Numbered from the stretch's first letter, positions 5,476-30,479 are shown. The stretch is 64,000 bases of DNA from Acidobacteriota bacterium (GCA_025353165.1 JANXRE010000076.1:1103-65102); one strand, 5' to 3'. Notes: generated from the sequence alone by a model not told the origin. Program-made: numbers and translations.

Positions 5476-6054
5476 TCACTGATATTCACCGAGAGTCGAT
5501 TTCACGGAAAGTGCTTTCGTAATCGCTTCGCGGGCGGGCGCGACCACCTGAACGACCGGACCGTCCGCAAATAGTGCCGGCTTCTGATTCCACGTCGCGC
5601 CGGGCGGGTACACGGCGACGTGGTCCCAGACAACGCTCTTGCGGTCGTGCTCGCCCATGGATTTCGAAACCAGCCGGTCCTTATCCCAATACTGCGCGGC
5701 GCGTCCATCCGAAATGCGTTTGAGCGCCGACGTGGACGGTGCGCTCCAATCGCTAAACAGTACCGGCTCCCACACCACGAAAGCGCGCACCGGCTGGCCG
5801 GGAAACGCCTTCAATATTGCTTCGATTGCAGAGGCCCCCTGCAAACAAACCGTTCAAGTCGGGGACAACAGCACCAGCAACCGCACGTCTCCCTTGGCTG
5901 CGTTGAAAGCGTCCTCGATGGTGGAACGGTTTTCCTGCGTGAGGGCCACCAACACATGCTGACCGGCGGGGGCTGTATGTCCGCCGGAATAATAGAAGAG
6001 CCCCGCGCCCAGTAGCAGCGCGGCGGGGATCGCGAGAAGAGTCTTGCGGGTCAT
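5476..6054 (-). CDS. membrane-anchored thioredoxin-fold protein read through an in-frame TGA (candidate selenocysteine, motif U-T-V-C)
   Basis: ORFs 5854-6054 and 5476-5844 are in the same frame and are separated only by TGA (5854-5856) plus three codons. The joined protein reads ..VRLLVLLSPT-U-TVCLQGASAIEAILK.., which is a beta-strand, redox motif, helix arrangement. The second ORF alone would start at TTG with no signal peptide. Confidence 0.45.
5819..5853 (-). promoter_or_regulatory. candidate bacterial SECIS stem-loop immediately 3' of the in-frame UGA
   Basis: The mRNA reads UGA ACGGUUUGU UUGCAG-GGGGCCU-CUGCAA UCGAAGC. There is a perfect 6-bp stem (5826-5844) starting 10 nt after the UGA, with a G-rich loop and an extendable lower stem. 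The UUGCAGG..CUGCA core resembles the E. coli fdhF SECIS apex as I recall it. Confidence 0.4.
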
Positions 6055-21064: not shown

Positions 21065-23830
21065 ATGCCGGGCCGGAGGTTCCGCATGACTTTCCCGCCG
21101 ATCGCGATACTGCTCTGCGCCGCCGCAGGCGCCTGGGCCCAGTCGGTCACCATCAGCCCGGGCTACACCAACCTCGGCGTCAACCAGACGCTGCAATACG
21201 CCGCGACGGTCACCGGACTCACGAATAAAGCCGTCACCTGGAAGATCTCCGGCGTCACCGGCGGCAATTCCACGCTGGGGAAGATCACTAAAGCGGGGTT
21301 ATACAAGGCCCCGGCGGCCGTGCCCGCCGCCAGCACTTTGGTGGAGGCGCTGGCCTCCGACGGCAAGACGATGGGTTCCGTCTATGTGAATATTGAGGCG
21401 GCCGGCCCATCCATCGCCTCCGTCTCGCCGAATCCGATCCCCACCGGCAATTTCACGGTCACGCTGACGGGAACGGCCTTCCAGAGCGGCGCCATCGTCT
21501 CGTTCAACGGCGCCAACCTGCCGACGACGTTCTTGACCGCGACCACTCTGAAAACCGGCGCCTACCAGGGCGCAGCAACCCCCGGCGTATTCCGGGTCGA
21601 GAACCCCGGCACGCTGTGGGGTGCGCCGTTCAGTGTGCAGTTTGTGCAAAGCGGGCCGCAAACGATTTCGCCCACGCAGGCGACGGTCACGCTCGGAGCC
21701 AACCAGCAATTCACCTCCTCCGGTGCAACCAGTTGGACGGCCACGGCCGGCGCGATCAGTTCCACCGGCCTTTACACGGCCCCCGCGGCGATGCCTTCGC
21801 CGAATACCGTCACGGTCACCGCGACCGGTGCGGGCGGCTCGGCCTCCGCCACGGTCACCCTGCAAAGCGCCACCCCGCAGACCATCTCGCCGGCCAGCGT
21901 CTCGCTGAACCTCGGCGCGACGCAGCAGTTCGCCTCCGCCGGCGCGACGGCGTGGAGCGCGGCGTACGGCACAATCACAACGGCCGGGCTCTACACCGCC
22001 CCCGCAACATTGCCGTCTTCCGGCGCCGACAGCGTGACCGTTACGGGCGCGAACGGCACGGCCACCGCGGCGGTCACTCTGATTGCTCCCACGCCGGTCA
22101 TCACCGGGGTGGGAGCGAACGGGCAATTGCCGCTGGGCATCTTCTCCACCACCGTCACCGGGACGGGTTTTCAGCCCGGTTCCGTCGGGCAGTTGAATGG
22201 CGCGCCGCTCGCGACCACGTATTCGGCGGGCTCGCTGAACGTCACCGGGTTCTGCGGCCAATCCGGCCCGGCGAACCTCACCGTGAGCACCGGGTCGGTC
22301 GCCTCCCAACCGTTTGCCGTGCAAATCGGAGTTCCAAACGCACAGGTTTCGGCGGCCGCGGCGCGACGTTTTCTGGAACAGGCGGCCTTCGGCCCCGCGC
22401 CGGTCGGCGCGACGCACGTGCAGACCATCGGCTTCCAACCCTGGCTGACCGAGCAGTTCAACATGGCGCAGGTTTCCAACTACAACATCATTACCTCGGG
22501 CCAGGGCGGGATGCCGGCGCACTTCCTGACCAACGCCGTGTCGAATTCCGACCAGTTGCGGCAGCGCGTGGCCTTCGCTCTCAGCCAGATCTTCGTCACT
22601 TCGATTCAAAAGCTGATCTGGAACGGCAACATGGTTCTGTTTCAGAACATGCTACTGGCCGACGCATTCACCAATTACCGGCAGATCATGGCGGATGTGA
22701 CGTTAAGTCCCGCCATGGGCCAATACCTCGACGTGGCCAACAACGCTATGGCCAATACTTCCGCCGGCACCCTGGCCAACGAGAACTACGCGCGCGAGAT
22801 GATGCAGCTATTTACCATCGGAACCCAAATGCTGAATCAGGACGCCTCGGTCCAGCTTGACGGCAACAATCTGCCGGTCCCGACTTATTCCCAATTCACG
22901 ATTACCGAATTTGCGCGAGTGTACACTGGTTGGACCTACGCGCCGACGCCGGGAGGCCAGGTCAACTGGGGCGCTTACATCAGCGGTTACGGGCCCATGG
23001 TTCCGTACCCGCCGCAGCACGACTCGGGATCCAAGCAGTTACTGAACGGATCCGTTTCGCCCGCCGGCCTCGCTCCGCTGCAGGATCTGAATAACGCCCT
23101 CGACAACATCTTCAATCATTCGAACGTCGGACCGTTCGTGGCGACGCAGTTGATCCGGCACCTGGTGAAAAGCAATCCCAGTCCGGGGTACGTGTTCCGC
23201 GTCGCCGCCGCCTTCAACAGCAACAGTCAGGGCGTGCGTGGCGATATGCAAGCGACCATCGCGGCCGTGCTGCTGGATGCCGAAGCCCGAGCCAACGATA
23301 ACGGTGGCGGCGATCTGACCGTCGACGGCCATTTGCAGGAGCCGGCGCTGTTCATCTCGGGCATGGTGCGAGCCTTCGGCGGCCAGATGAACGACCAGAA
23401 CTACTATCCGTCGGACCTGGCTGTCATGGGACAGGACCTCTTCAATTCGCCGAGCGTCTTCAACTACTATTCGCCGAATTATCAGGTTCCCGGCACGCCG
23501 CTCACAGGCGGCGAGTTCGAGATTCACACCCCGAACAATGCGATCTGGCGCGCCAACGTAGTGCAGAATCTGTTCAGCCAGTATTCGAACCCGGTCCAGA
23601 GTTACGGCCCAGGCACTTCACTGGACCTGACGCCCTTCCTCGCGCTGGCATCCACTCCCGCGACGCTGGTCGCCGCTCTCGATCTGACCTTGACTCACGG
23701 CGTGATGCCCGCGGGCATGAAATCCGCCATCGTGAGCGCGGTCGCGGCCGACACTCTGGGCCCCTTGCACCAGGTGCAAACCGCCTGTTACCTGATCCTG
23801 ACTTCGAGTTACTACAATGTCTGGCACTAG
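21065..23830 (+). CDS. DUF1800 domain protein with ~430-aa N-terminal array of Ig-like (BIG2/IPT) repeats
   Basis: It has a signal peptide and tandem repeats (QTISPTQATVTLGANQQFTSSGATSW.. / QTISPASVSLNLGATQQFASAGATAW..). The C-terminal part (FLEQAAFGP.., ENYAREMMQLFTIG, HDSGSK) is typical of DUF1800. Confidence 0.75.
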   Translation: MPGRRFRMTFPPIAILLCAAAGAWAQSVTISPGYTNLGVNQTLQYAATVTGLTNKAVTWKISGVTGGNSTLGKITKAGLYKAPAAVPAASTLVEALASDGKTMGSVYVNIEAAGPSIASVSPNPIPTGNFTVTLTGTAFQSGAIVSFNGANLPTTFLTATTLKTGAYQGAATPGVFRVENPGTLWGAPFSVQFVQSGPQTISPTQATVTLGANQQFTSSGATSWTATAGAISSTGLYTAPAAMPSPNTVTVTATGAGGSASATVTLQSATPQTISPASVSLNLGATQQFASAGATAWSAAYGTITTAGLYTAPATLPSSGADSVTVTGANGTATAAVTLIAPTPVITGVGANGQLPLGIFSTTVTGTGFQPGSVGQLNGAPLATTYSAGSLNVTGFCGQSGPANLTVSTGSVASQPFAVQIGVPNAQVSAAAARRFLEQAAFGPAPVGATHVQTIGFQPWLTEQFNMAQVSNYNIITSGQGGMPAHFLTNAVSNSDQLRQRVAFALSQIFVTSIQKLIWNGNMVLFQNMLLADAFTNYRQIMADVTLSPAMGQYLDVANNAMANTSAGTLANENYAREMMQLFTIGTQMLNQDASVQLDGNNLPVPTYSQFTITEFARVYTGWTYAPTPGGQVNWGAYISGYGPMVPYPPQHDSGSKQLLNGSVSPAGLAPLQDLNNALDNIFNHSNVGPFVATQLIRHLVKSNPSPGYVFRVAAAFNSNSQGVRGDMQATIAAVLLDAEARANDNGGGDLTVDGHLQEPALFISGMVRAFGGQMNDQNYYPSDLAVMGQDLFNSPSVFNYYSPNYQVPGTPLTGGEFEIHTPNNAIWRANVVQNLFSQYSNPVQSYGPGTSLDLTPFLALASTPATLVAALDLTLTHGVMPAGMKSAIVSAVAADTLGPLHQVQTACYLILTSSYYNVWH

Positions 23831-23902
23831 TAAGGAGAAAAATGGGGGACAGACACCGGCGGAAAAGGCTGTCTGTCCCCCATTTTTAAAAAAGGAGAGG
23901 AC

Positions 23903-25279
23903 ATGCTGATTCGTTCCCGGCGTGAGTTCTTGAAAGACACGGTTCGGTCGGTCACCGCCTTGGGCGCGGCGGGTGCAATGGCGAGGTTCATAGAGATGAA
24001 CGCTCTCGCCGCCACCGGCTCCGGCTATCAGGCGCTGGTATGTGTGTTCCTGCTGGGTGGCAACGACGGCCACAACACCGTGATCCCGATCGCCACCGCG
24101 CAACAGAACTACAGCCAGTACCAGCAGTATCGCGGCGGGCTCGCGCTTCCCCAAGCCTCTCTGCTTCCCATCGCCAACGGCGGCGAAACCTATGGCCTGC
24201 ACCCCAGCCTCGTCGAACTCCAGGCCCTTTACAACCAGGGCAAGGCGGCGGTGCTGGCCAACGTGGGCATGCTGGTGCAACCCATCACCCGCGCTCAATA
24301 CCTGGGCAACAACAGCGCCATTGTCCCTGCGTCGTTGTTCTCGCACTCCGATCAAAGCAACCAGTGGCAAACCGCGATCCCCAATGGAATCGCCGGCAGC
24401 GGCTGGGGCGGCCGCATCACCGACCTGCTGCAGGGACAGAACGCCGGCGCGATCTTCCCTCCCATTACCACGACGGGTTCCTGCGGTCTGTTCTGCACTG
24501 GCGTGCAGACTTTTCCCGCCACGGTGCCTCCGCCGTATTCCGGCTCGACGGCCGTCACCGGAATCGCCACCCTGAACGGCCTTTCGAACTCGCCCGCGCG
24601 GGCCGGAGGCATGCAGCAGTTGCTCACCTTCGACAACGGGCTCCAGTTAGTGCAAGCCGCCAACGGCGTCATGACGCGCGGCAACAGTTACGCCAACACA
24701 CTGACTAGCCTGCTGACGTCGTCCACCTTGAAGACGGTGTTTCCGGCCAACAATCCGCTCGCCGGCCAGTTGCAGACCGTGGCGAATGTCATGTCGGTAC
24801 GCAACCAACTCGGACTCACCCGGCAGATCTTCTTCTGCCTGCTGGACGGCTTCGATACGCACGGGCAGCAACTCGAAACTCAGCAGCCGCTCCTGCAGCA
24901 GTTGAGCCAGGCCCTGCTCGCGTTCTACCAGGCCACCCAGGAACTCGGCGTCGACCAGAACGTGACCACCTTCACCGCCTCCGAGTTCGGGCGCACGCTG
25001 ACGCCCAGCGGAACCGACGGCAGCGATCACGCCTGGGGCAACCACCACTTCATCCTGGGCGGCGGCGTGAAGGGCGGCCAGTTCTACGGCAGCTTCCCGC
25101 TGCTCGCTCCCGGCGCGAGCGACGACGCCAACACCCGCGGCGTATTGATCCCCACGACGGCGGTGGACCAATACGGCGCAACGCTGGCGCAATGGTTCGG
25201 CGTCGCGCCGGCCAGCCTGCCCGCCATTTTCCCGAACATCGGAAACTTCAGCGCAACTAATCTGGGGTTCCTGGGCTAA
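23903..25279 (+). CDS. DUF1501 domain protein (sulfatase-like), TAT signal
   Basis: MLIRSRREFLKDTV..GAAGAMA is a TAT signal. FLLGGNDGHNTVIP, GFDTH and SEFGRT..GTDHAWG are the typical DUF1501 signature. Confidence 0.85.
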   Translation: MLIRSRREFLKDTVRSVTALGAAGAMARFIEMNALAATGSGYQALVCVFLLGGNDGHNTVIPIATAQQNYSQYQQYRGGLALPQASLLPIANGGETYGLHPSLVELQALYNQGKAAVLANVGMLVQPITRAQYLGNNSAIVPASLFSHSDQSNQWQTAIPNGIAGSGWGGRITDLLQGQNAGAIFPPITTTGSCGLFCTGVQTFPATVPPPYSGSTAVTGIATLNGLSNSPARAGGMQQLLTFDNGLQLVQAANGVMTRGNSYANTLTSLLTSSTLKTVFPANNPLAGQLQTVANVMSVRNQLGLTRQIFFCLLDGFDTHGQQLETQQPLLQQLSQALLAFYQATQELGVDQNVTTFTASEFGRTLTPSGTDGSDHAWGNHHFILGGGVKGGQFYGSFPLLAPGASDDANTRGVLIPTTAVDQYGATLAQWFGVAPASLPAIFPNIGNFSATNLGFLG

Positions 25280-25289
25280 CACCCAGGTG

Positions 25290-25330
25290 GCGCACGCAAT
25301 CGTGCGTGCCGCGTCGGCACTCCTGCCGAC
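25290..25330 (+). terminator. two tandem GC-rich hairpins after the DUF1501 gene (no U-tract)
   Basis: The first is gcgcacg-caat-cgtgcgt at 25290-25307. The second is a perfect gtcggca-ctcc-tgccgac at 25313-25330, 11-50 nt after the stop codon. Confidence 0.3.
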
Positions 25331-25509
25331 GCTTAGCGAGCCGCGCGGAAACTGGTGTCGCGATGGGTCGCCGACACGCACCAGTGCATGAGCCTCGTCG
25401 GCTTGGCAGGGCTGTTTCGTTGGCCTCGGATTGATTGAAACGCTCCGGCCCCGGTTTTCACCTACTAACCGGCGGGGGCAGCCCGCCGGAAACCTGGAGG
25501 AAACCCATC

Positions 25510-27621
25510 ATGCCCGTTGAAATCAGGCCGGTGCTGGTGAATGTCGACGTCCGCAAGGAAAGACTCGATTTTCATAAGCTCATCGCCGGCAACCCCAATT
25601 ACTTCGGTAATCTCAAGCAGAGCCCCTTTAAGCCGATCGTCGCGATCGCGTCCGATACAGCCTACGAAGAAGTGACCTGCATCGGCTTCAACCCCGCCTC
25701 GAACGTCCTGGAAGCGGTGATTCAAATCACGCAGCCGGCCGGGTACGGAGGAAATCCCTGCGGAACCGGATCGTTCGAATACGTGCGATTCTTCCTCGAC
25801 TACGGAACGGGTTGGGAAGATGCGGGTTTCGCCGCCGTACACGTGAACGACGTCGCCACCGCCAACGACTGCGCCGGCGTGGCGGGCAAACCGCTCAGCT
25901 ATGCGGCTTCCGTTCAGATCCAACCGAAATCCAACTGGTGCTTCTTCCCGGTTCTGCCGAAGGTCCGCGCCATCCTCTCGTGGCAGCAGATCCCGACCGC
26001 CGGGGACGCGGCTTTCACGCCGATCTGGGGCAACGTGCTGGAGCGCCACATCCAGATCCAGCCCCGCCTGCTCCTGTTCGAAGAGGTCGCCCTGCAGATC
26101 AGCAAAGAAGTCCAGCAGGTCATCCCTCCCGCGCAGTTGAGCGCCATCGCGAAGATGCCCATCCCTTTGCCGGACCCTGGCCCCATCGACCTGGCGCAGC
26201 TAACCAAGCTGTACAGCGCGAAGAAGACTGCCACGGCCGCTATCCCCTCGCATCGTTTTGGATTCCCCGAACTCCACGCCGTGCTGAAAGGACCGGACGC
26301 GAACGCGAAGTCCGTCACCGCCGGCATCTCCAAGTGGGCCAGCCTCGGCCTGAACTGGCAGTCGGCCCTGGCCGCGTTGAGTGAACTCGACGCCGATGTC
26401 GCGTACGAACAACTCGAGTGCCTCGGCATGGAAGGCGACTCCGGCCTGGAGCGCCTGGTCGCCACCTTCCGCATCAAACAGCCGGGCGGCTACGGCGGAG
26501 GACTGTGCACCGCCGGAAGCGCCGAATACGTCGCCTTCTGGGCGGACTGGGACAACACCTGCCAGTACACGTACCTCGGCACCGTGCCCGTGCAGGTGCA
26601 CGATATCGCCGGTATCCCGGCCGACGGACTGGTTTACACCGCCGTGCTGCCCGTGGATGTCGGCGCTCATCGCGAGTCGTGCGACAAGTCGAAAATCGCC
26701 CGCGTGCGGGCCGTGCTTTCCTGGGCGGTCCCGCCATCGACGGTAGATCCGAATGCGCTCGATTTCTGGGGCAACCGGATCGACACCCACGTGCAGATCC
26801 GGCCCGGCGATGTACCGAACGTGCTGAGCCCGAGGATCGCTATCCTCGGAGGAATCGCGACCTCGCTCATCGACGGCGCGGGCCTGACCACGCCGGCGGC
26901 AATTTTCGCGGGAACCAACTTCCCTGCGGACGACCAGAATCTGGGCCGGCAGTGCCCGTTCGGCGGGCGCGTCGAAGTTCAGGGTTATTCCTTCCCCGGT
27001 TTGAAGTACCGCATTCAGGTGAAGCCGACGGCGGGCGGATTGTGGCAGAACGTGGTCACCCCGCTTTGGCTTGTCCGCTGGGACGGCACCACCTACCAGG
27101 TGTTGCCGGACGCGCAGGGCTTCTTCGATTACCAGCAGCACGACCAGAACATCGAGAACCTGCTCGGGCTGTGGGACACCGGTGGCGACGACCAGTGGTT
27201 CGTCAAGCTGGAGATCGCCGACATGGCCGACAATCCCATTCTCGGCGCGGTTCCGGATATCGATGTCCTGCAGTTGGATAACACCGCTCCGCAAGCAGTG
27301 TTGCACATCGACAGCGGCGGCGATTGCGGGAAGTTCGCAGTCGGCGCGGTGCTGAACGGCCACTTCGTCGGCCGCGACCTCAACTTCGGCGGCTACAGCC
27401 TGTACACGCTGCCGTTCAACGGGCCCATCAGTCCGTCCGGCGGCACCGTGCAAACGGCTGTCGCTCCGGGCGACGTTTGGACGCTGAACACCGCCGGCAT
27501 GACCCCGTGCGGCTACGTGATCGAGTTGGATGTCTCCGATCGGAGTATCGTCAACAGCGGGTACGCATCTCACAATCGTGCGTCCTCTTCGGCCGGCTTC
27601 TGTCTCCTCGCGACCCTGTAA
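25510..27621 (+). CDS. hypothetical 703-aa protein with tandemly duplicated ~135-aa Cys-containing domain; no recognisable family
   Basis: The start is set at ATG 25510, 8 nt after GGAGGA. Repeat 1 (aa ~50-185) and repeat 2 (aa ~297-432) share YE..C.G, QP.GYGG..C..GS.EYV.F, VRA.LSW, .WGN and H.QI.P. No signal peptide is visible. Confidence 0.6.
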   Translation: MPVEIRPVLVNVDVRKERLDFHKLIAGNPNYFGNLKQSPFKPIVAIASDTAYEEVTCIGFNPASNVLEAVIQITQPAGYGGNPCGTGSFEYVRFFLDYGTGWEDAGFAAVHVNDVATANDCAGVAGKPLSYAASVQIQPKSNWCFFPVLPKVRAILSWQQIPTAGDAAFTPIWGNVLERHIQIQPRLLLFEEVALQISKEVQQVIPPAQLSAIAKMPIPLPDPGPIDLAQLTKLYSAKKTATAAIPSHRFGFPELHAVLKGPDANAKSVTAGISKWASLGLNWQSALAALSELDADVAYEQLECLGMEGDSGLERLVATFRIKQPGGYGGGLCTAGSAEYVAFWADWDNTCQYTYLGTVPVQVHDIAGIPADGLVYTAVLPVDVGAHRESCDKSKIARVRAVLSWAVPPSTVDPNALDFWGNRIDTHVQIRPGDVPNVLSPRIAILGGIATSLIDGAGLTTPAAIFAGTNFPADDQNLGRQCPFGGRVEVQGYSFPGLKYRIQVKPTAGGLWQNVVTPLWLVRWDGTTYQVLPDAQGFFDYQQHDQNIENLLGLWDTGGDDQWFVKLEIADMADNPILGAVPDIDVLQLDNTAPQAVLHIDSGGDCGKFAVGAVLNGHFVGRDLNFGGYSLYTLPFNGPISPSGGTVQTAVAPGDVWTLNTAGMTPCGYVIELDVSDRSIVNSGYASHNRASSSAGFCLLATL

Positions 27622-27626
27622 GGAAC

Positions 27627-28007
27627 ATGAGCTGGATTTTCTTCATTGCCGTCCTGGCGGTGTGGCGCGTTACCCACGCGCTCGCCGCCGAGGACGGCCC
27701 TTTCCGCATCGTCGCCCGGCTGCGATACAAAGCCGGGACTGGATTCTGGGGCGAACTGATGGATTGTTTCTACTGCCTCAGCCTCTGGATCGCGATGCCC
27801 TTCGCGCTCCTGCTGGGAAACTCCTGGCGGGAGCGCGTCACCTTGTGGCTGGCCCTGTCGGCCGCCGCGATTCTGTTAAACCGGCTTTGGGACAGGGTGG
27901 CCCCCGACCGGCCGGAACATTTGGAGGAACGTCATGAGCTGTTGTGGACAAGCGAGAGCGCAGGCCAGCGCGGAGATGGAAGCGCGCGCCCGCCCGACGC
28001 CCGTTAA
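27627..28007 (+). CDS. DUF1360-like small membrane protein
   Basis: ATG 27627 follows AAGGAA. IAVLAVWRVTHALAAEDGPFRIVARLR...MDCFYCLSLWIAMPF resembles the DUF1360 signature (RlT.li..D.i...R ... C.wC.svW). Confidence 0.6.
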   Translation: MSWIFFIAVLAVWRVTHALAAEDGPFRIVARLRYKAGTGFWGELMDCFYCLSLWIAMPFALLLGNSWRERVTLWLALSAAAILLNRLWDRVAPDRPEHLEERHELLWTSESAGQRGDGSARPPDAR

Positions 28008-28179
28008 CACGCCGCGGTATGGATCGGTGGTATTGGAATACACCGGACGGGGCGATTTGGCGGTGGTCGGCCCGGCCACGCGCACCACCTATCGTTTCAG
28101 CCAACCCGGCGCGCGCGTGAGCGTGGACGGCCGGGATAGCGGCCCGCTCGGCACGAGGCGGGATCTCCGGCGGCTGTAA
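27934..28179 (+). CDS. small hypothetical protein (81 aa, N-terminal MSCCGQ)
   Basis: The ATG lies 5 nt after a strong GGAGGA. The ORF overlaps the 3' 74 nt of the DUF1360 ORF in another frame. I recognise no family. Confidence 0.4.
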   Translation: MSCCGQARAQASAEMEARARPTPVNTPRYGSVVLEYTGRGDLAVVGPATRTTYRFSQPGARVSVDGRDSGPLGTRRDLRRL

Positions 28180-28620
28180 TCAGTCCCGGAACGAATGAAT
28201 CGCCTTCGCCCGCTTTTCCAGATTCCTGGCCAGCCGCTGGTCTGGAATCGATCGCGCGAACGGTGGATGATGACGTAGTCGCCGGCCGCGAAGCTGCGAT
28301 GGTTTCCGCGACGCGGGTGGCAGTGCCGGTGCTGCCGCTCTCATGCGCGATGTGAAGCCAAATGTCGTCGAGTTCAGCCTCGGAAATCTGCTCACGTGCG
28401 TGGATTCTGCCGGGCGGCCAAATGCGCCAAGTCACGCCGCTGGACGTCGTCGCCAAGCTGCCGCAGCTCCTCGGGTATCGTCACGTCGCGGCCTTCGCCG
28501 CGCGCCAGGGATGCTTCCGCTTCATCGACCGCGAGCAGGATTTCCAGTCTCCGCCGCTCACGCTCCTCCCACAACGAACGCTTGCGGATCCAGGGTGAGC
28601 TGCACTTCCAATAGGTCAAG
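28180..28620 (-). pseudogene. decayed ParD/ParE-like toxin-antitoxin locus
   Basis: The antitoxin-like frame reads ..RKRSLWEERERRRLEILLAVDEAEASLARGEG... The toxin pieces are spread over three frames: ISEAELDDIWLHIAHESGSTGTATRVAETI, then GDYVIIHRS, then ..AKAIHSFRD*. Confidence 0.35.
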
Positions 28621-28642
28621 GTAGGAGGCGCCGGGGCGGGTG

Positions 28643-29857
28643 TCAAGAAGGGTAACGCAGGGTGTCGAGCAGCCATTCACGGTTACTTCGGACATCGTCG
28701 GTTAGCCGGGCGCATAGTTGCTCTCGCTGTTCGAACAGGCGGTAACCCGCGCGGTCCCTCAGGTAGCCTTGCGCTTGCGGGTGTTCGGCGCGCTCCTCCG
28801 GGCTCATCGACTCGTAGCGCCGGCGGTTGTCGAGCAGCGCGCGTACCAGGAACGGCATCAGCATCGAGTAGTCCGCTTGCATGCTCTCGGTCGCGACCGT
28901 GTATGTCTCTTTGTCGACTTTGCCCCAGGTGACGGCCTCGGCGGGCGGACAGGACGATAGCGAGCCATCGGTGATGGGCGCCGTCACGATTTGCACGTCG
29001 AAGTTGTAGCCTCGCACGTTCGGAATGCCAAGCACTTGGCCCAGGGCGGGCTCCGGCTGGAGGTTGTAGTTCTTCGGTACGCCCCCGCCGAGGATCAGGG
29101 TACCGAGCGTGTGCACCGGGTTGTCGAACAATCCCCAGCGGTGATAAGCGCAGGCCTCGAAGACTTCCGCGTGGAGGTCGAGGTCGAAGGCATAGTCCGG
29201 GATCAGCCCGGCCTGGCGCATGGCCCACAGCTTCATCGAATTCAGGAACACGCTGCCGTCGCCCGGCGCTCCGACGAACACCGGGATCTGCATTTCGTGG
29301 CACGTGGAGAGCAGCCCCGCGGGGACGCCGTTCTTGCGCTCCTGCGCGCGGTAGACCTCGCCCAACCGGTAGCGCAGTTCGGTGCCCGTCATCTTCTTCT
29401 GAAACTCCGGGCGCGAGAGTACCGCGGTCAGGAACCGATCCTGATCCAGGAGCACGTCCTCATCGAACGCCATGTCGGTCACCCGGATGGTGCGCTGGTC
29501 GCGGAGCGCGGCGTCGTCGCCGAAGATCGGGACTTCGTGGATGCACTCCCGCCGGTTATCGAGCGAACGGTGGCCATCGTGGTAGCAGACCGCGTCGGTG
29601 GTGGAGAGATAGGCCACCCAGCCGGTTTCGAGCAGCGGGATCAGCCACGTCTGGTGCTGGCCTGAGACCGTGACCGGACCCGCGATGGCCAGAGTGAGCG
29701 GGCAGCCCATGCCGATGGCCCGATCAAGAATGGTGTAGATACGCCGTAGATACGCGCCGCCGAATGCCGGAAGGCAATAGCGAAAAATCTCGTCCAGCGT
29801 CCCGCACTCATCGATACGGCGGACGCGCACCGTGGCTCTCGGTTGATCTTCGGACAT
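28643..29857 (-). CDS. deoxyhypusine synthase-like family protein
   Basis: LILGGGVPKNYN and ITDGSLSSCPPAEAVTWGKV parallel eukaryotic/archaeal DHS GGGVVKHHI and DGSDSGARPDEAVSWGKI, from memory. Confidence 0.8.
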   Translation of the reverse strand: MSEDQPRATVRVRRIDECGTLDEIFRYCLPAFGGAYLRRIYTILDRAIGMGCPLTLAIAGPVTVSGQHQTWLIPLLETGWVAYLSTTDAVCYHDGHRSLDNRRECIHEVPIFGDDAALRDQRTIRVTDMAFDEDVLLDQDRFLTAVLSRPEFQKKMTGTELRYRLGEVYRAQERKNGVPAGLLSTCHEMQIPVFVGAPGDGSVFLNSMKLWAMRQAGLIPDYAFDLDLHAEVFEACAYHRWGLFDNPVHTLGTLILGGGVPKNYNLQPEPALGQVLGIPNVRGYNFDVQIVTAPITDGSLSSCPPAEAVTWGKVDKETYTVATESMQADYSMLMPFLVRALLDNRRRYESMSPEERAEHPQAQGYLRDRAGYRLFEQREQLCARLTDDVRSNREWLLDTLRYPS

Positions 29858-29861
29858 TCTC

Positions 29862-30479
29862 TTATTCGAACTGCTTGCGGAACCGCGCGAATTCTTCCTT
29901 CAATTGATCCACTTCTTCACGCAGCGCGCGAACCTCGGCGTCGACAGACGGAGCGGCCACCGCGGGAACCTCGGCCGGCGGCTCGCCCGAAAGCAGGTGC
30001 GCGAAACGGACCTCGCGCGAGCCGGGCTGCCGCGGCAACTGCGCAACCAGCGCGCCGGGCTCGCGTTCCATCAATCCGCGCAGCACGATCTCGACCTCTT
30101 CGAGGTCCTCAAATTCGTACAGGCGGGCCGCGCGCGACCGCAACTCGCCCGGCGTCTGCGGTCCCCGGAGCATCAACTCGCAGAGGATCGCCACCTCGCG
30201 GCGGCCGAGATTGAGGCGCTCGCCGATGCGGTGCCCAAACTTGGAAACCCGGTTGGATCCGCCCGTGATCGCGGTGACGAAGCCCTTTTGTTTGGCCTCA
30301 TCCAGCGCGAGCGAAACCTCGGTCTCGCCGTACGCGACCACGGGATCGCGGTTCGACTTCTGATTACAGGCGTTGACGAGCGCGTTCAGCGTAAGCGGAT
30401 AGTACTCGGGCGTGGTGATGTCCTTTTCGAGGAGCGCACCGAGTATCCGCGCCTCCACCGGGCCAAGGCGAAGGTCCAC
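29862..30479 (-). CDS. yceH: YceH family protein (DUF480/UPF0502)
   Basis: LGPVEARILGALLEKDITTPEYYPLTLNALVNACNQKSNRDPVV is the diagnostic YceH N-terminus. The start is GTG. Confidence 0.85.
   Translation of the reverse strand: MDLRLGPVEARILGALLEKDITTPEYYPLTLNALVNACNQKSNRDPVVAYGETEVSLALDEAKQKGFVTAITGGSNRVSKFGHRIGERLNLGRREVAILCELMLRGPQTPGELRSRAARLYEFEDLEEVEIVLRGLMEREPGALVAQLPRQPGSREVRFAHLLSGEPPAEVPAVAAPSVDAEVRALREEVDQLKEEFARFRKQFE

Follow-up and report, generated by a model that had tools for sequence, protein, structure and literature searches.

A three-gene cluster of Acidobacteria encoding a member of a very large undescribed protein family, with a candidate extracytoplasmic function sigma factor switch

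In Myxococcus xanthus, DdvS, a sigma factor of the extracytoplasmic function (ECF) group, is held by DdvA, an anti-sigma factor that binds zinc, spans the membrane and has a TPR-CHAT region as its periplasmic part, and CHAT-dependent self-cleavage has been proposed as the trigger (PMC11506125). The GEVED domain (PF20009) of CshA is in turn a bacterial adhesin stalk domain (PMC10952558). This article concerns a stretch of 64,000 nucleotides (nt) from an Acidobacteriota bacterium (GCA_025353165.1, JANXRE010000076.1:1103-65102), referred to throughout as the window, and a cluster of three co-oriented genes within it, g1, g2 and g3 (25510-28179, plus strand), that can be compared with both; the same names are used for the genes and their products. 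No described family includes g1 or g3, and the regulators linked to them in related genomes, an ECF sigma factor and an anti-sigma factor with a CHAT component, are of a known kind.

The explanation preferred here, to which we give a probability of about 0.4 as a whole, is that the three genes form an operon controlled by an ECF sigma factor and that g1 acts in the cell envelope. The initial annotation of this DNA had considered that the function of the cluster could not be inferred, which now appears too pessimistic, since its regulation can be deduced from an ECF-type promoter and an associated block of regulatory genes, and its probable location from envelope features of the g1 family. What that annotation gave as the physical layout (coordinates, Shine-Dalgarno (SD) sequences, gap and overlap) is borne out by the sequence. 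g1 (25510-27621) starts with ATG, ends with a TAA stop codon at 27619-27621, encodes 703 amino acids (aa) and is preceded by the SD sequence GGAGGA (25496-25501). g2 (27627-28007; ATG start, 126 aa, SD sequence AAGGAA) begins after a gap of 5 nt and shares 74 nt with g3 (27934-28179; ATG start, 81 aa), the SD sequence of which, GGAGGA, is at 27923-27928.

A scan of one genome per species yielded 209 g1 loci, 80 of which were fetched, and the neighbourhood counts given below rest on 83 related loci. Alignment of the regions upstream of g1 revealed the motif TGAAACG-N15-[TG]CAC[TC]A, and its counterpart in the window (25436-25463, plus strand), 47 nt upstream of the g1 ATG, consists of the -35 element TGAAACG, a 15-nt spacer and the -10-like hexamer TCACCT, which mismatches the consensus TCACTA at its last two bases. 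An AAC-containing -35 element is a hallmark of ECF promoters, and the TGAAAC -35 element resembles that of the Bacillus SigW type. The g1 promoter is the single match to TGAAAC-N16-TCAC in the 64-kb window, and its position rules out the alternative g1 start codon TTG at 25435. The exact motif occurs before g1 in loci L004, L005, L020, L023 and L084, and before sigma or anti-sigma genes in L008, L009, L018 and L020. At a threshold of at least 11 of the 13 positions it was present in 19 of 81 g1-upstream regions, all from Acidobacteria, compared with 14 of 1660 random windows. A degenerate form of the pattern gave 50 matches on both strands of 1.9 Mb of related loci, all of them in loci that carry the trio, where they precede g1 (in 24 loci), the sigma operon or anti-sigma gene, and a divergent gene; the 56 other loci contained none. 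Because the motif is common to g1 and to the linked sigma/anti-sigma/TPR-CHAT block, it is very likely that the linked ECF sigma factor acts on the g1-g3 operon. With moderate confidence, expression of g1 may be said to respond to an envelope-type signal through this predicted switch.

The block in question adjoins the trio in 20 Acidobacteria loci and comprises genes for a 71-aa paralogue of g3, the ECF sigma factor, a single-pass anti-sigma factor of about 230 aa with a zf-HC2 domain, a DUF8256 protein, and an 800-900-aa protein of the TPR-CHAT (caspase-like) type. Four orthologues of the sigma factor score 44.0-52.0 bits against TIGR02937, for which the cut-off is 42.9, and the zf-HC2 match of the anti-sigma factor is likewise above its cut-off. 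The 20 loci show three different arrangements; relative to the trio, the block may be placed upstream or downstream, and in convergent or divergent orientation. That the two have stayed linked despite being rearranged speaks for a functional tie between them.

Additional copies of the promoter motif were seen at several of these loci. In L007-L019, copies within the first 400 nt on the minus strand point away from the sigma block and beyond the fetched flank, and a copy at 5788 (minus strand) of L023 points to a 174-aa gene that heads a divergent operon; these extra copies imply a regulon larger than g1-g3 and the sigma block. In clusters of the Acidobacteriaceae type, about 600 nt of leader or uncalled open reading frame (ORF) separate the promoter motif from the sigma gene (L088, 4448-5060), and in L013, L015, L016 and L019 a 125-aa ORF was found 51 nt after the motif. 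Within g2 of the window itself, the sequence GGAAAC-N16-TCACCT (27816-27843, plus strand) lies 118 nt before the g3 start and shares its -10-like hexamer with the g1 promoter. This match was considered as a second promoter and set aside as probable noise, a pattern this loose being expected about three times by chance per window.

The relatives also bear on whether the three genes belong together. When g2 and g3 were sought in the 83 loci by local tblastn and with hidden Markov models (HMMs), g2 was found to adjoin g1 in 27, directly downstream in 24 Acidobacteria and upstream in three Actinomycetota, and g3 was found near g1 in 26, including one Ignavibacteriales locus; co-occurrence is thus not peculiar to this genome. 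In the closest relative, L084 (85% identity), the trio is likewise present and its 74-nt overlap unchanged, yet the genes on either side are entirely different; the trio therefore relocates as a block. This second neighbourhood agrees with the accessory context proposed for the cluster in the initial annotation, just as its suggestion of one transcription unit is strengthened by the conservation of the trio and by the overlapping stop and start kept in relatives. As read from the sequences, g1-g2-g3 is one conserved operon that has changed its genomic location. The unit is real in Acidobacteria and is not a general one, g2 and g3 being almost confined to that group.

Outside Acidobacteria, g1 is usually solitary among unrelated neighbours. 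All-against-all BLAST clustering of those neighbours gave no recurrent partner, a Pfam search of 141 flanking proteins found no family common to more than four, and no small membrane protein recurred among the small adjacent ORFs inspected. Occasional neighbours of g1, none of them general, encode an astacin, a papain-like protease, an ABC-3C CTD7 protein and a DUF6895 protein. An association with proteases, as suggested by CHAT, astacin and papain-like neighbours, was dropped as a general rule after the Pfam scan of the 141 proteins.

g1 is a member of a very large family that crosses phyla and is undescribed. More than 1154 homologues were found in a protein collection clustered at 90% identity, all of about 700 aa, all annotated as hypothetical and none with a Pfam domain. 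A profile of the repeated g1 module, when searched against 1.84 billion representatives, matched at least 1000 clusters (50% identity level) at E ≤ 1e-3, 382 of them at E ≤ 1e-30, and the best 150 matches nearly all had the two-module, approximately 700-aa architecture. Some homologues show three module matches rather than two, and members of 800-900 aa exist, including P0108 from Oscillatoria (L002, 8001-10433). The fetched loci derive from Acidobacteriota, Pseudomonadota, Methylomirabilota, Cyanobacteriota, Planctomycetota (Brocadia), Actinomycetota, Gemmatimonadota, Verrucomicrobiota, Chloroflexota and Ignavibacteriales, and identity to g1 across these phyla is 42-68%. That the large protein lies outside any described family, as first proposed, has held: Pfam, NCBIfam, PADLOC and PDB sequences contained no match to g1, phmmer and profile searches of the PDB gave nothing better than E ≥ 0.08, and 28 aligned family members had no shared Pfam family at E ≤ 5. 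At least 1000 clusters that have no Pfam, NCBIfam or literature description represent a sizeable blind spot in genome annotation.

A g1 homologue (39.7% identity) is carried by the megaplasmid of Ralstonia solanacearum PSI07 (NC_014310.1, 1592859-1594892; L086, 8001-10034), which makes this cultivable and genetically tractable plant pathogen a convenient bearer of the gene. Two further R. solanacearum plasmid records or strains carry a homologue of the same type; the PSI07 homologue is not listed in the PLSDB gene tables.

The architecture of g1 can be described from alignments and from an AlphaFold2 model of the whole protein, built on 28 homologues, with a predicted local distance difference test (pLDDT) score of 85.5, according to which beta-sandwich domains make up nearly all of the protein. 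Near the N-terminus is a helical motif, ER..F..L.A.NPNYFGN (aa 14-35; 25549-25614, plus strand, as are all parts of g1), in which R18, N28, P29, N30, F32 and G33 are invariant in the alignment; an NPNYFG-like motif is present in 238 of 270 homologues. There follow a first predicted immunoglobulin (Ig)-like module (aa 50-185; 25657-26064) with Cys57, Cys84, Cys121 and Cys144, a connector (aa 186-296; 26065-26397) with the motifs PIPLPDP and HRFGF, a second predicted Ig-like module (aa 297-432; 26398-26805) with Cys304, Cys333, Cys351 and Cys391, and a C-terminal beta-rich region (aa 433-703; 26806-27618) with Cys482, Cys606, Cys667, Cys698 and a QLDNTAP motif, which from its strand pattern probably forms two beta-sandwich domains. 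The two modules had been recognized in the initial annotation by shared blocks and by four cysteines at equivalent positions. The repeat is genuine, well beyond what chance would give (residues 37-185 against 284-432, 33% identity, E = 2e-22), and three of the four cysteines do align (C57/C304, C84/C333 and C144/C391); C121 and C351 do not. The connector, previously taken for a Pro/Ala-rich spacer, is instead conserved, with invariant residues P217, P221, Y235 and R249, and is predicted to be largely helical, its helices spanning aa 190-292 in the model (pLDDT 62-88). The second sandwich covers aa 300-432 of the model, and the C-terminal beta-rich part aa 440-703.

When modelled alone, module 1 forms a seven-strand beta-sandwich (pLDDT 85, predicted template modelling score 0.83). 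Foldseek comparison of this model with PDB structures revealed no specific relative, the best match having E = 1.7e-3 and template modelling (TM) scores not exceeding 0.48; the weak matches include fibronectin type III (FN3) domains, CTLA-4, NPC2, superoxide reductase and PapD-type chaperones. Whole g1, compared with the PDB and BFVD, gave generic multi-Ig matches at TM 0.1-0.2, to PrgB Ig-like domains, complement C5 and C3, alpha-2-macroglobulins, SiiE, and phage tail and FN3 proteins, and so offered no clue to function. The lack of a specific structural relative indicates that the module is a new sequence family with a predicted Ig-like fold. An intramolecular thioester or ester cross-link between Cys57 or Thr56 and Gln182, residues conserved on the first and last strands, was entertained as an idea only, Thr56 being unconserved in distant relatives.

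Twelve cysteines are present in g1, and their conservation is markedly uneven. Among 126 representatives that are 28-49% identical to g1, Cys84, Cys144, Cys333, Cys391, Cys606 and Cys667 are conserved at 90-100%; they form the pairs 84/144, 333/391 and 606/667, one in each of three domains, at spacings of 60, 58 and 61 residues. Classical disulfides within Ig domains have a spacing of about 60 residues. In the same set, conservation is 80-90% for Cys57, Cys304 and Cys698, which have no obvious partner, and Cys121, Cys351 and Cys482 occur in only about one-third of distant representatives.

A location outside the cytoplasm is indicated by the more distant members of the family. The N-terminus of g1 is not hydrophobic, which agrees with the original observation that it has no signal peptide, and most family members, g1 included, lack a classical export signal. 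In 16 of 150 representatives, a Sec, lipoprotein or Tat-like N-terminal signal directly precedes the ER..F..L...NPNYFG motif. Longer variants have an N-terminal PG_binding_1 domain together with a C-terminal lamin-tail domain (LTD), an N-terminal CarboxypepD_reg/transthyretin-like domain, which in some homologues is an extension of about 100 aa, or an HHH_3 domain. A divergent subfamily (P0240, P0248 and P0223) matches positions 1-27 of the 78-position GEVED profile (PF20009) on the segment GY/FGG..C..EYV.FW.DW; g1 and 27 close relatives show no such match, so the resemblance in the divergent relatives is local and does not amount to membership. Taken together, the conserved cysteine pairs, secretion signals, domain fusions and partial GEVED resemblance suggest an envelope or extracellular site of action for the family, and g1 is, with moderate confidence, proposed to be a disulfide-stabilized Ig-like protein of the cell envelope.

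The second gene of the operon encodes a small, apparently multi-pass membrane protein of the DUF1360 type, of which it is a marginal member: g2 scores 22.5 bits against PF07098 (gathering cut-off 21; E = 1.1e-4), and the match, between its residues 38-83 and profile positions 50-97 of 102, is limited to the C-terminal half. PHROG 781, a family of phage proteins whose function is unknown, is matched as well (E = 1.7e-7). The hydropathy profile of g2 shows three hydrophobic stretches (approximately aa 3-21, 44-66 and 71-88), and its conserved motifs are AVWR.THLL.AEDGP and DCFYCLSLW, the latter kept in 27 orthologues and containing C47xxC50. The literature found gives no function for DUF1360, and the literature and databases searched contain no description of a link between DUF1360 and a g1-type protein.

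g3 is predicted to be soluble and has a near-invariant N-terminus, M-[SP]-C-C-G, in 25 orthologues, its cysteines being C3 and C4, followed by the core F.YTG...L.V.G..T...Y.F...G....VDGRD. Another gene caller gives a 67-aa form (P0121); the 81-aa form is preferred because of the near-invariance of its start among the orthologues. There are 76 g3-type relatives of 66-90 aa, none of them annotated, and searches of PADLOC and PHROGs gave nothing useful for g3 or for g1. The 71-aa paralogue that heads the sigma block (L001, 11020-11235; L006, 8838-9053; L018, 8726-9052; L023, 5039-5254) lacks the CCG start and keeps the core Y.G...V.G..TG..Y.F....VD..DA..LL; such 71-aa forms are commoner in the protein database than the 81-aa g3 type.

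These elements can be assembled into a provisional mechanism. An unknown, probably envelope-related signal would inactivate the anti-sigma factor, a step in which the TPR-CHAT protein may take part, in line with what has been proposed for Myxococcus DdvA, and the freed sigma factor would then transcribe its own block and g1-g3. g1 would act outside the cytoplasm as a disulfide-stabilized, Ig-like binding or structural protein of the envelope. A helper role is proposed for the presumably co-transcribed g2 and g3, the latter with its CCG motif, because g1 is here without a signal peptide; that they help the leaderless g1 to cross the membrane, or to mature at it, is put forward with low confidence. 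A broader version, in which leaderless members of the g1 family reach the envelope by an unrecognized route that in Acidobacteria runs via the DUF1360 and CCG mini-proteins under an ECF/TPR-CHAT cascade, is rather unlikely. If true, it would provide the first function for DUF1360, a new export or maturation pathway and a new envelope-response regulon. The explanation turns three hypothetical genes into a testable unit with a promoter, a candidate ECF/anti-sigma/TPR-CHAT switch and two candidate accessory proteins.

Several observations weigh against the preferred explanation. The final base of the -10 element in the window, and that base only, falls outside the observed range [TG]CAC[TC]A, and local HMMs detected no sigma, anti-sigma or CHAT genes of this kind in the 64-kb window. 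Twelve representatives without Cys391 still keep Cys333. The g2 tail is hydrophilic and acidic (15 of 38 residues charged, net charge -3). Neither g2 nor g3, nor any other recurring small membrane partner, accompanies most of the leaderless homologues in other phyla, and since the partners are missing in most lineages, g2 and g3 cannot be a general export route. A signal peptide was found in none of 120 close g1 homologues, and a cytoplasmic role is therefore the simplest for this subfamily. On the principal rival explanation, which we consider somewhat unlikely, g1 would be a cytoplasmic scaffold, sensor, or metal or redox protein with cysteines that bind a metal or cluster, and g2 (CxxC) and g3 (CCG) would be its thiol or metal partners at the membrane. 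Such a role would account for the invariant cysteine motifs of all three proteins and for the conserved Cys57, Cys304 and Cys698 that have no evident partner, and the weak structural matches of the module include an iron protein with an Ig-like fold, superoxide reductase, albeit at TM ≤ 0.48. It sits less well with the Ig-disulfide-like spacing of the three best-conserved cysteine pairs, with the secretion signals of about 10% of distant relatives and the fusion of others to peptidoglycan-binding or lamin-tail domains; moreover, His113 is not invariant, so that no conserved set of His/Cys ligands emerged.

The resemblance of the neighbouring ECF sigma, anti-sigma and TPR-CHAT genes to the logic of DdvS/DdvA (PMC11506125), combined with the accessory, relocated context and with the toxin-antitoxin, transposase and ABC-3C genes found near some homologues, could alternatively mean that the trio is an anti-phage or conflict module, in the manner of the island of cyclic-oligonucleotide-based anti-phage signalling system (CBASS) and CRISPR genes that DdvS/DdvA controls. 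This is improbable, given that g1, g2 and g3 had no match in PADLOC-DB 2.0 at E ≤ 1, that effector-type domains such as those of nucleases, NTPases or proteases were not detected in the three proteins with Pfam, NCBIfam and PADLOC, that defence genes were not enriched among the 141 neighbours, and that the phage collection contained no g1 homologue. The 42-68% identity between phyla is also higher than is usual for immune sensors. Slighter still is the likelihood of a colicin-style release module, in which g1 would be a secreted, leaderless toxin or adhesin-like agent, g2 a holin-like releaser or membrane immunity protein, and g3 an immunity or release factor. The gene order fits this scheme, with a large leaderless product first, then a small one bearing three hydrophobic segments, and last a small overlapping gene; g2 matches a phage family, and the N-terminal peptidoglycan-binding or transthyretin-like domains of some relatives might be targeting modules; against this stand the usual solitude of g1, with no candidate immunity gene, its lack of a recognizable toxic domain, the acidic g2 tail, and strong conservation over the whole length of g1 across phyla, unlike the fast evolution of bacteriocins. 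Finally, the absence of g2 and g3 beside g1 in most phyla, and the shorter g3 given by one gene caller, might suggest that the genes are functionally unrelated neighbours or that g3 is a spurious overlapping ORF. That view is largely refuted and has very little probability: the trio and its overlap are kept in at least 24 loci, the three genes have changed place together, the identity of g3 between loci is 34-58% and its N-terminal motif is invariant, and the partners also recur beside g1 outside Acidobacteria, with g2 upstream of it in three Actinomycetota loci and g3 beside it in an Ignavibacteriales locus.

The remaining features of the locus are non-coding elements and flanking genes. In the predicted 5' leader, directly before the SD sequence of g1, is an 8-bp perfect hairpin, CCGGCGGG / CCCGCCGG (25469-25489, plus strand), read from the sequence, which forms part of a longer imperfect inverted repeat, I1, found by an inverted-repeat scan. 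Beyond the operon, 42 nt 3' of the g3 stop, an inverted repeat with 14-nt arms that are 86% complementary (28221-28249, plus strand) may mark the end of the g1-g3 transcription unit; it has no T-run and was not reported by the terminator scan. The hairpins claimed at 25290-25330 in the initial annotation are present: the GC-rich hairpin GCGTCGGCA/TGCCGACGC (25311-25332) was detected by the inverted-repeat scan and a second, tandem GC-rich hairpin (about 25290-25309) was read by eye. Neither has a T-run; located directly 3' of the stop codon of a DUF1501 gene, they probably set that gene apart from the promoter of g1. A search of the g1-g3 region against Rfam found no RNA family, and a scan of the region for sigma-70 promoters and terminators was uninformative.

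Upstream of the trio, a gene pair on the plus strand (21065-25279) encodes a DUF1800 protein of 921 aa, with a long Ig-like, Thr/Ala-rich N-terminal region, and a DUF1501 protein of 458 aa. Since the flanks of L084 differ, this pair is not linked to the trio in relatives. Downstream, a decayed ParDE locus had been proposed; the ParD-like frame and the frameshifted ParE-like frame (28180-28676, minus strand) are visible only by eye, as Pfam searches at E ≤ 1 were empty for both frames and tblastn against 72,556 plasmids was likewise empty. Further downstream and convergent with the trio (28643-30479, minus strand), a deoxyhypusine synthase-like gene (PF01916, E = 1.8e-34) lies beside a DUF480 gene (E = 5e-60); a bacterial homologue of deoxyhypusine synthase is mildly unusual.

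Comparison with described systems places the cluster near several of them without merging it into any. Like colicin operons and class I holin cassettes, it has a gene for a large leaderless protein followed by one for a small product with three hydrophobic segments, and then a small overlapping gene. Class I holins have three transmembrane segments and a charged, usually basic, C-terminal tail, and are encoded beside a lysin. When g2 was examined on these points, the three segments and a highly charged tail were found, but the tail is acidic and no lysin is adjacent; the cluster further differs in having neither toxin nor lipoprotein signal, and in lacking its partners in most lineages. g2 resembles DUF1360 and PHROG 781 in that it scores above the Pfam cut-off and shares the hydrophobic segment that contains C..C, although the DUF1360 match is marginal and covers half of the profile.

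g1 resembles the alpha-2-macroglobulins and complement C3/C5 in being a multi-domain beta-sandwich protein, with Foldseek E values of 1e-9 to 1e-10. It is of a different size, has no CGEQ thioester motif, and superposes at TM 0.11-0.13 with a root-mean-square deviation near 30 Å, such that the likeness to these macroglobulin (MG)-domain proteins is generic to Ig-like arrays. With the stalks of adhesins (CshA GEVED, PrgB and SiiE), g1 shares a beta-sandwich array, and the Ig-like domains of PrgB, SiiE and the MG-domain proteins are its best whole-length Foldseek matches. It differs from these stalks in having no signal peptide, anchor or long repeat stalk, in its fixed four-domain architecture with a helical connector, and in the low TM scores of both the whole protein and the module.

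The closest parallel is DdvS/DdvA, in that genes for an ECF sigma factor, a single-pass anti-sigma factor of zf-HC2 type and a TPR-CHAT region stand together beside a target operon with a sigma-specific promoter. The parallel is not exact: the block is not in this window, it adds a DUF8256 protein and a small g3 paralogue, and its presumed target is g1-g3 rather than CBASS/CRISPR genes. The anti-sigma factor and the TPR-CHAT protein are also separate proteins here. If the preferred explanation is true, the Acidobacterial operon would be the second instance of ECF signalling linked to TPR-CHAT, in this case with its components split.

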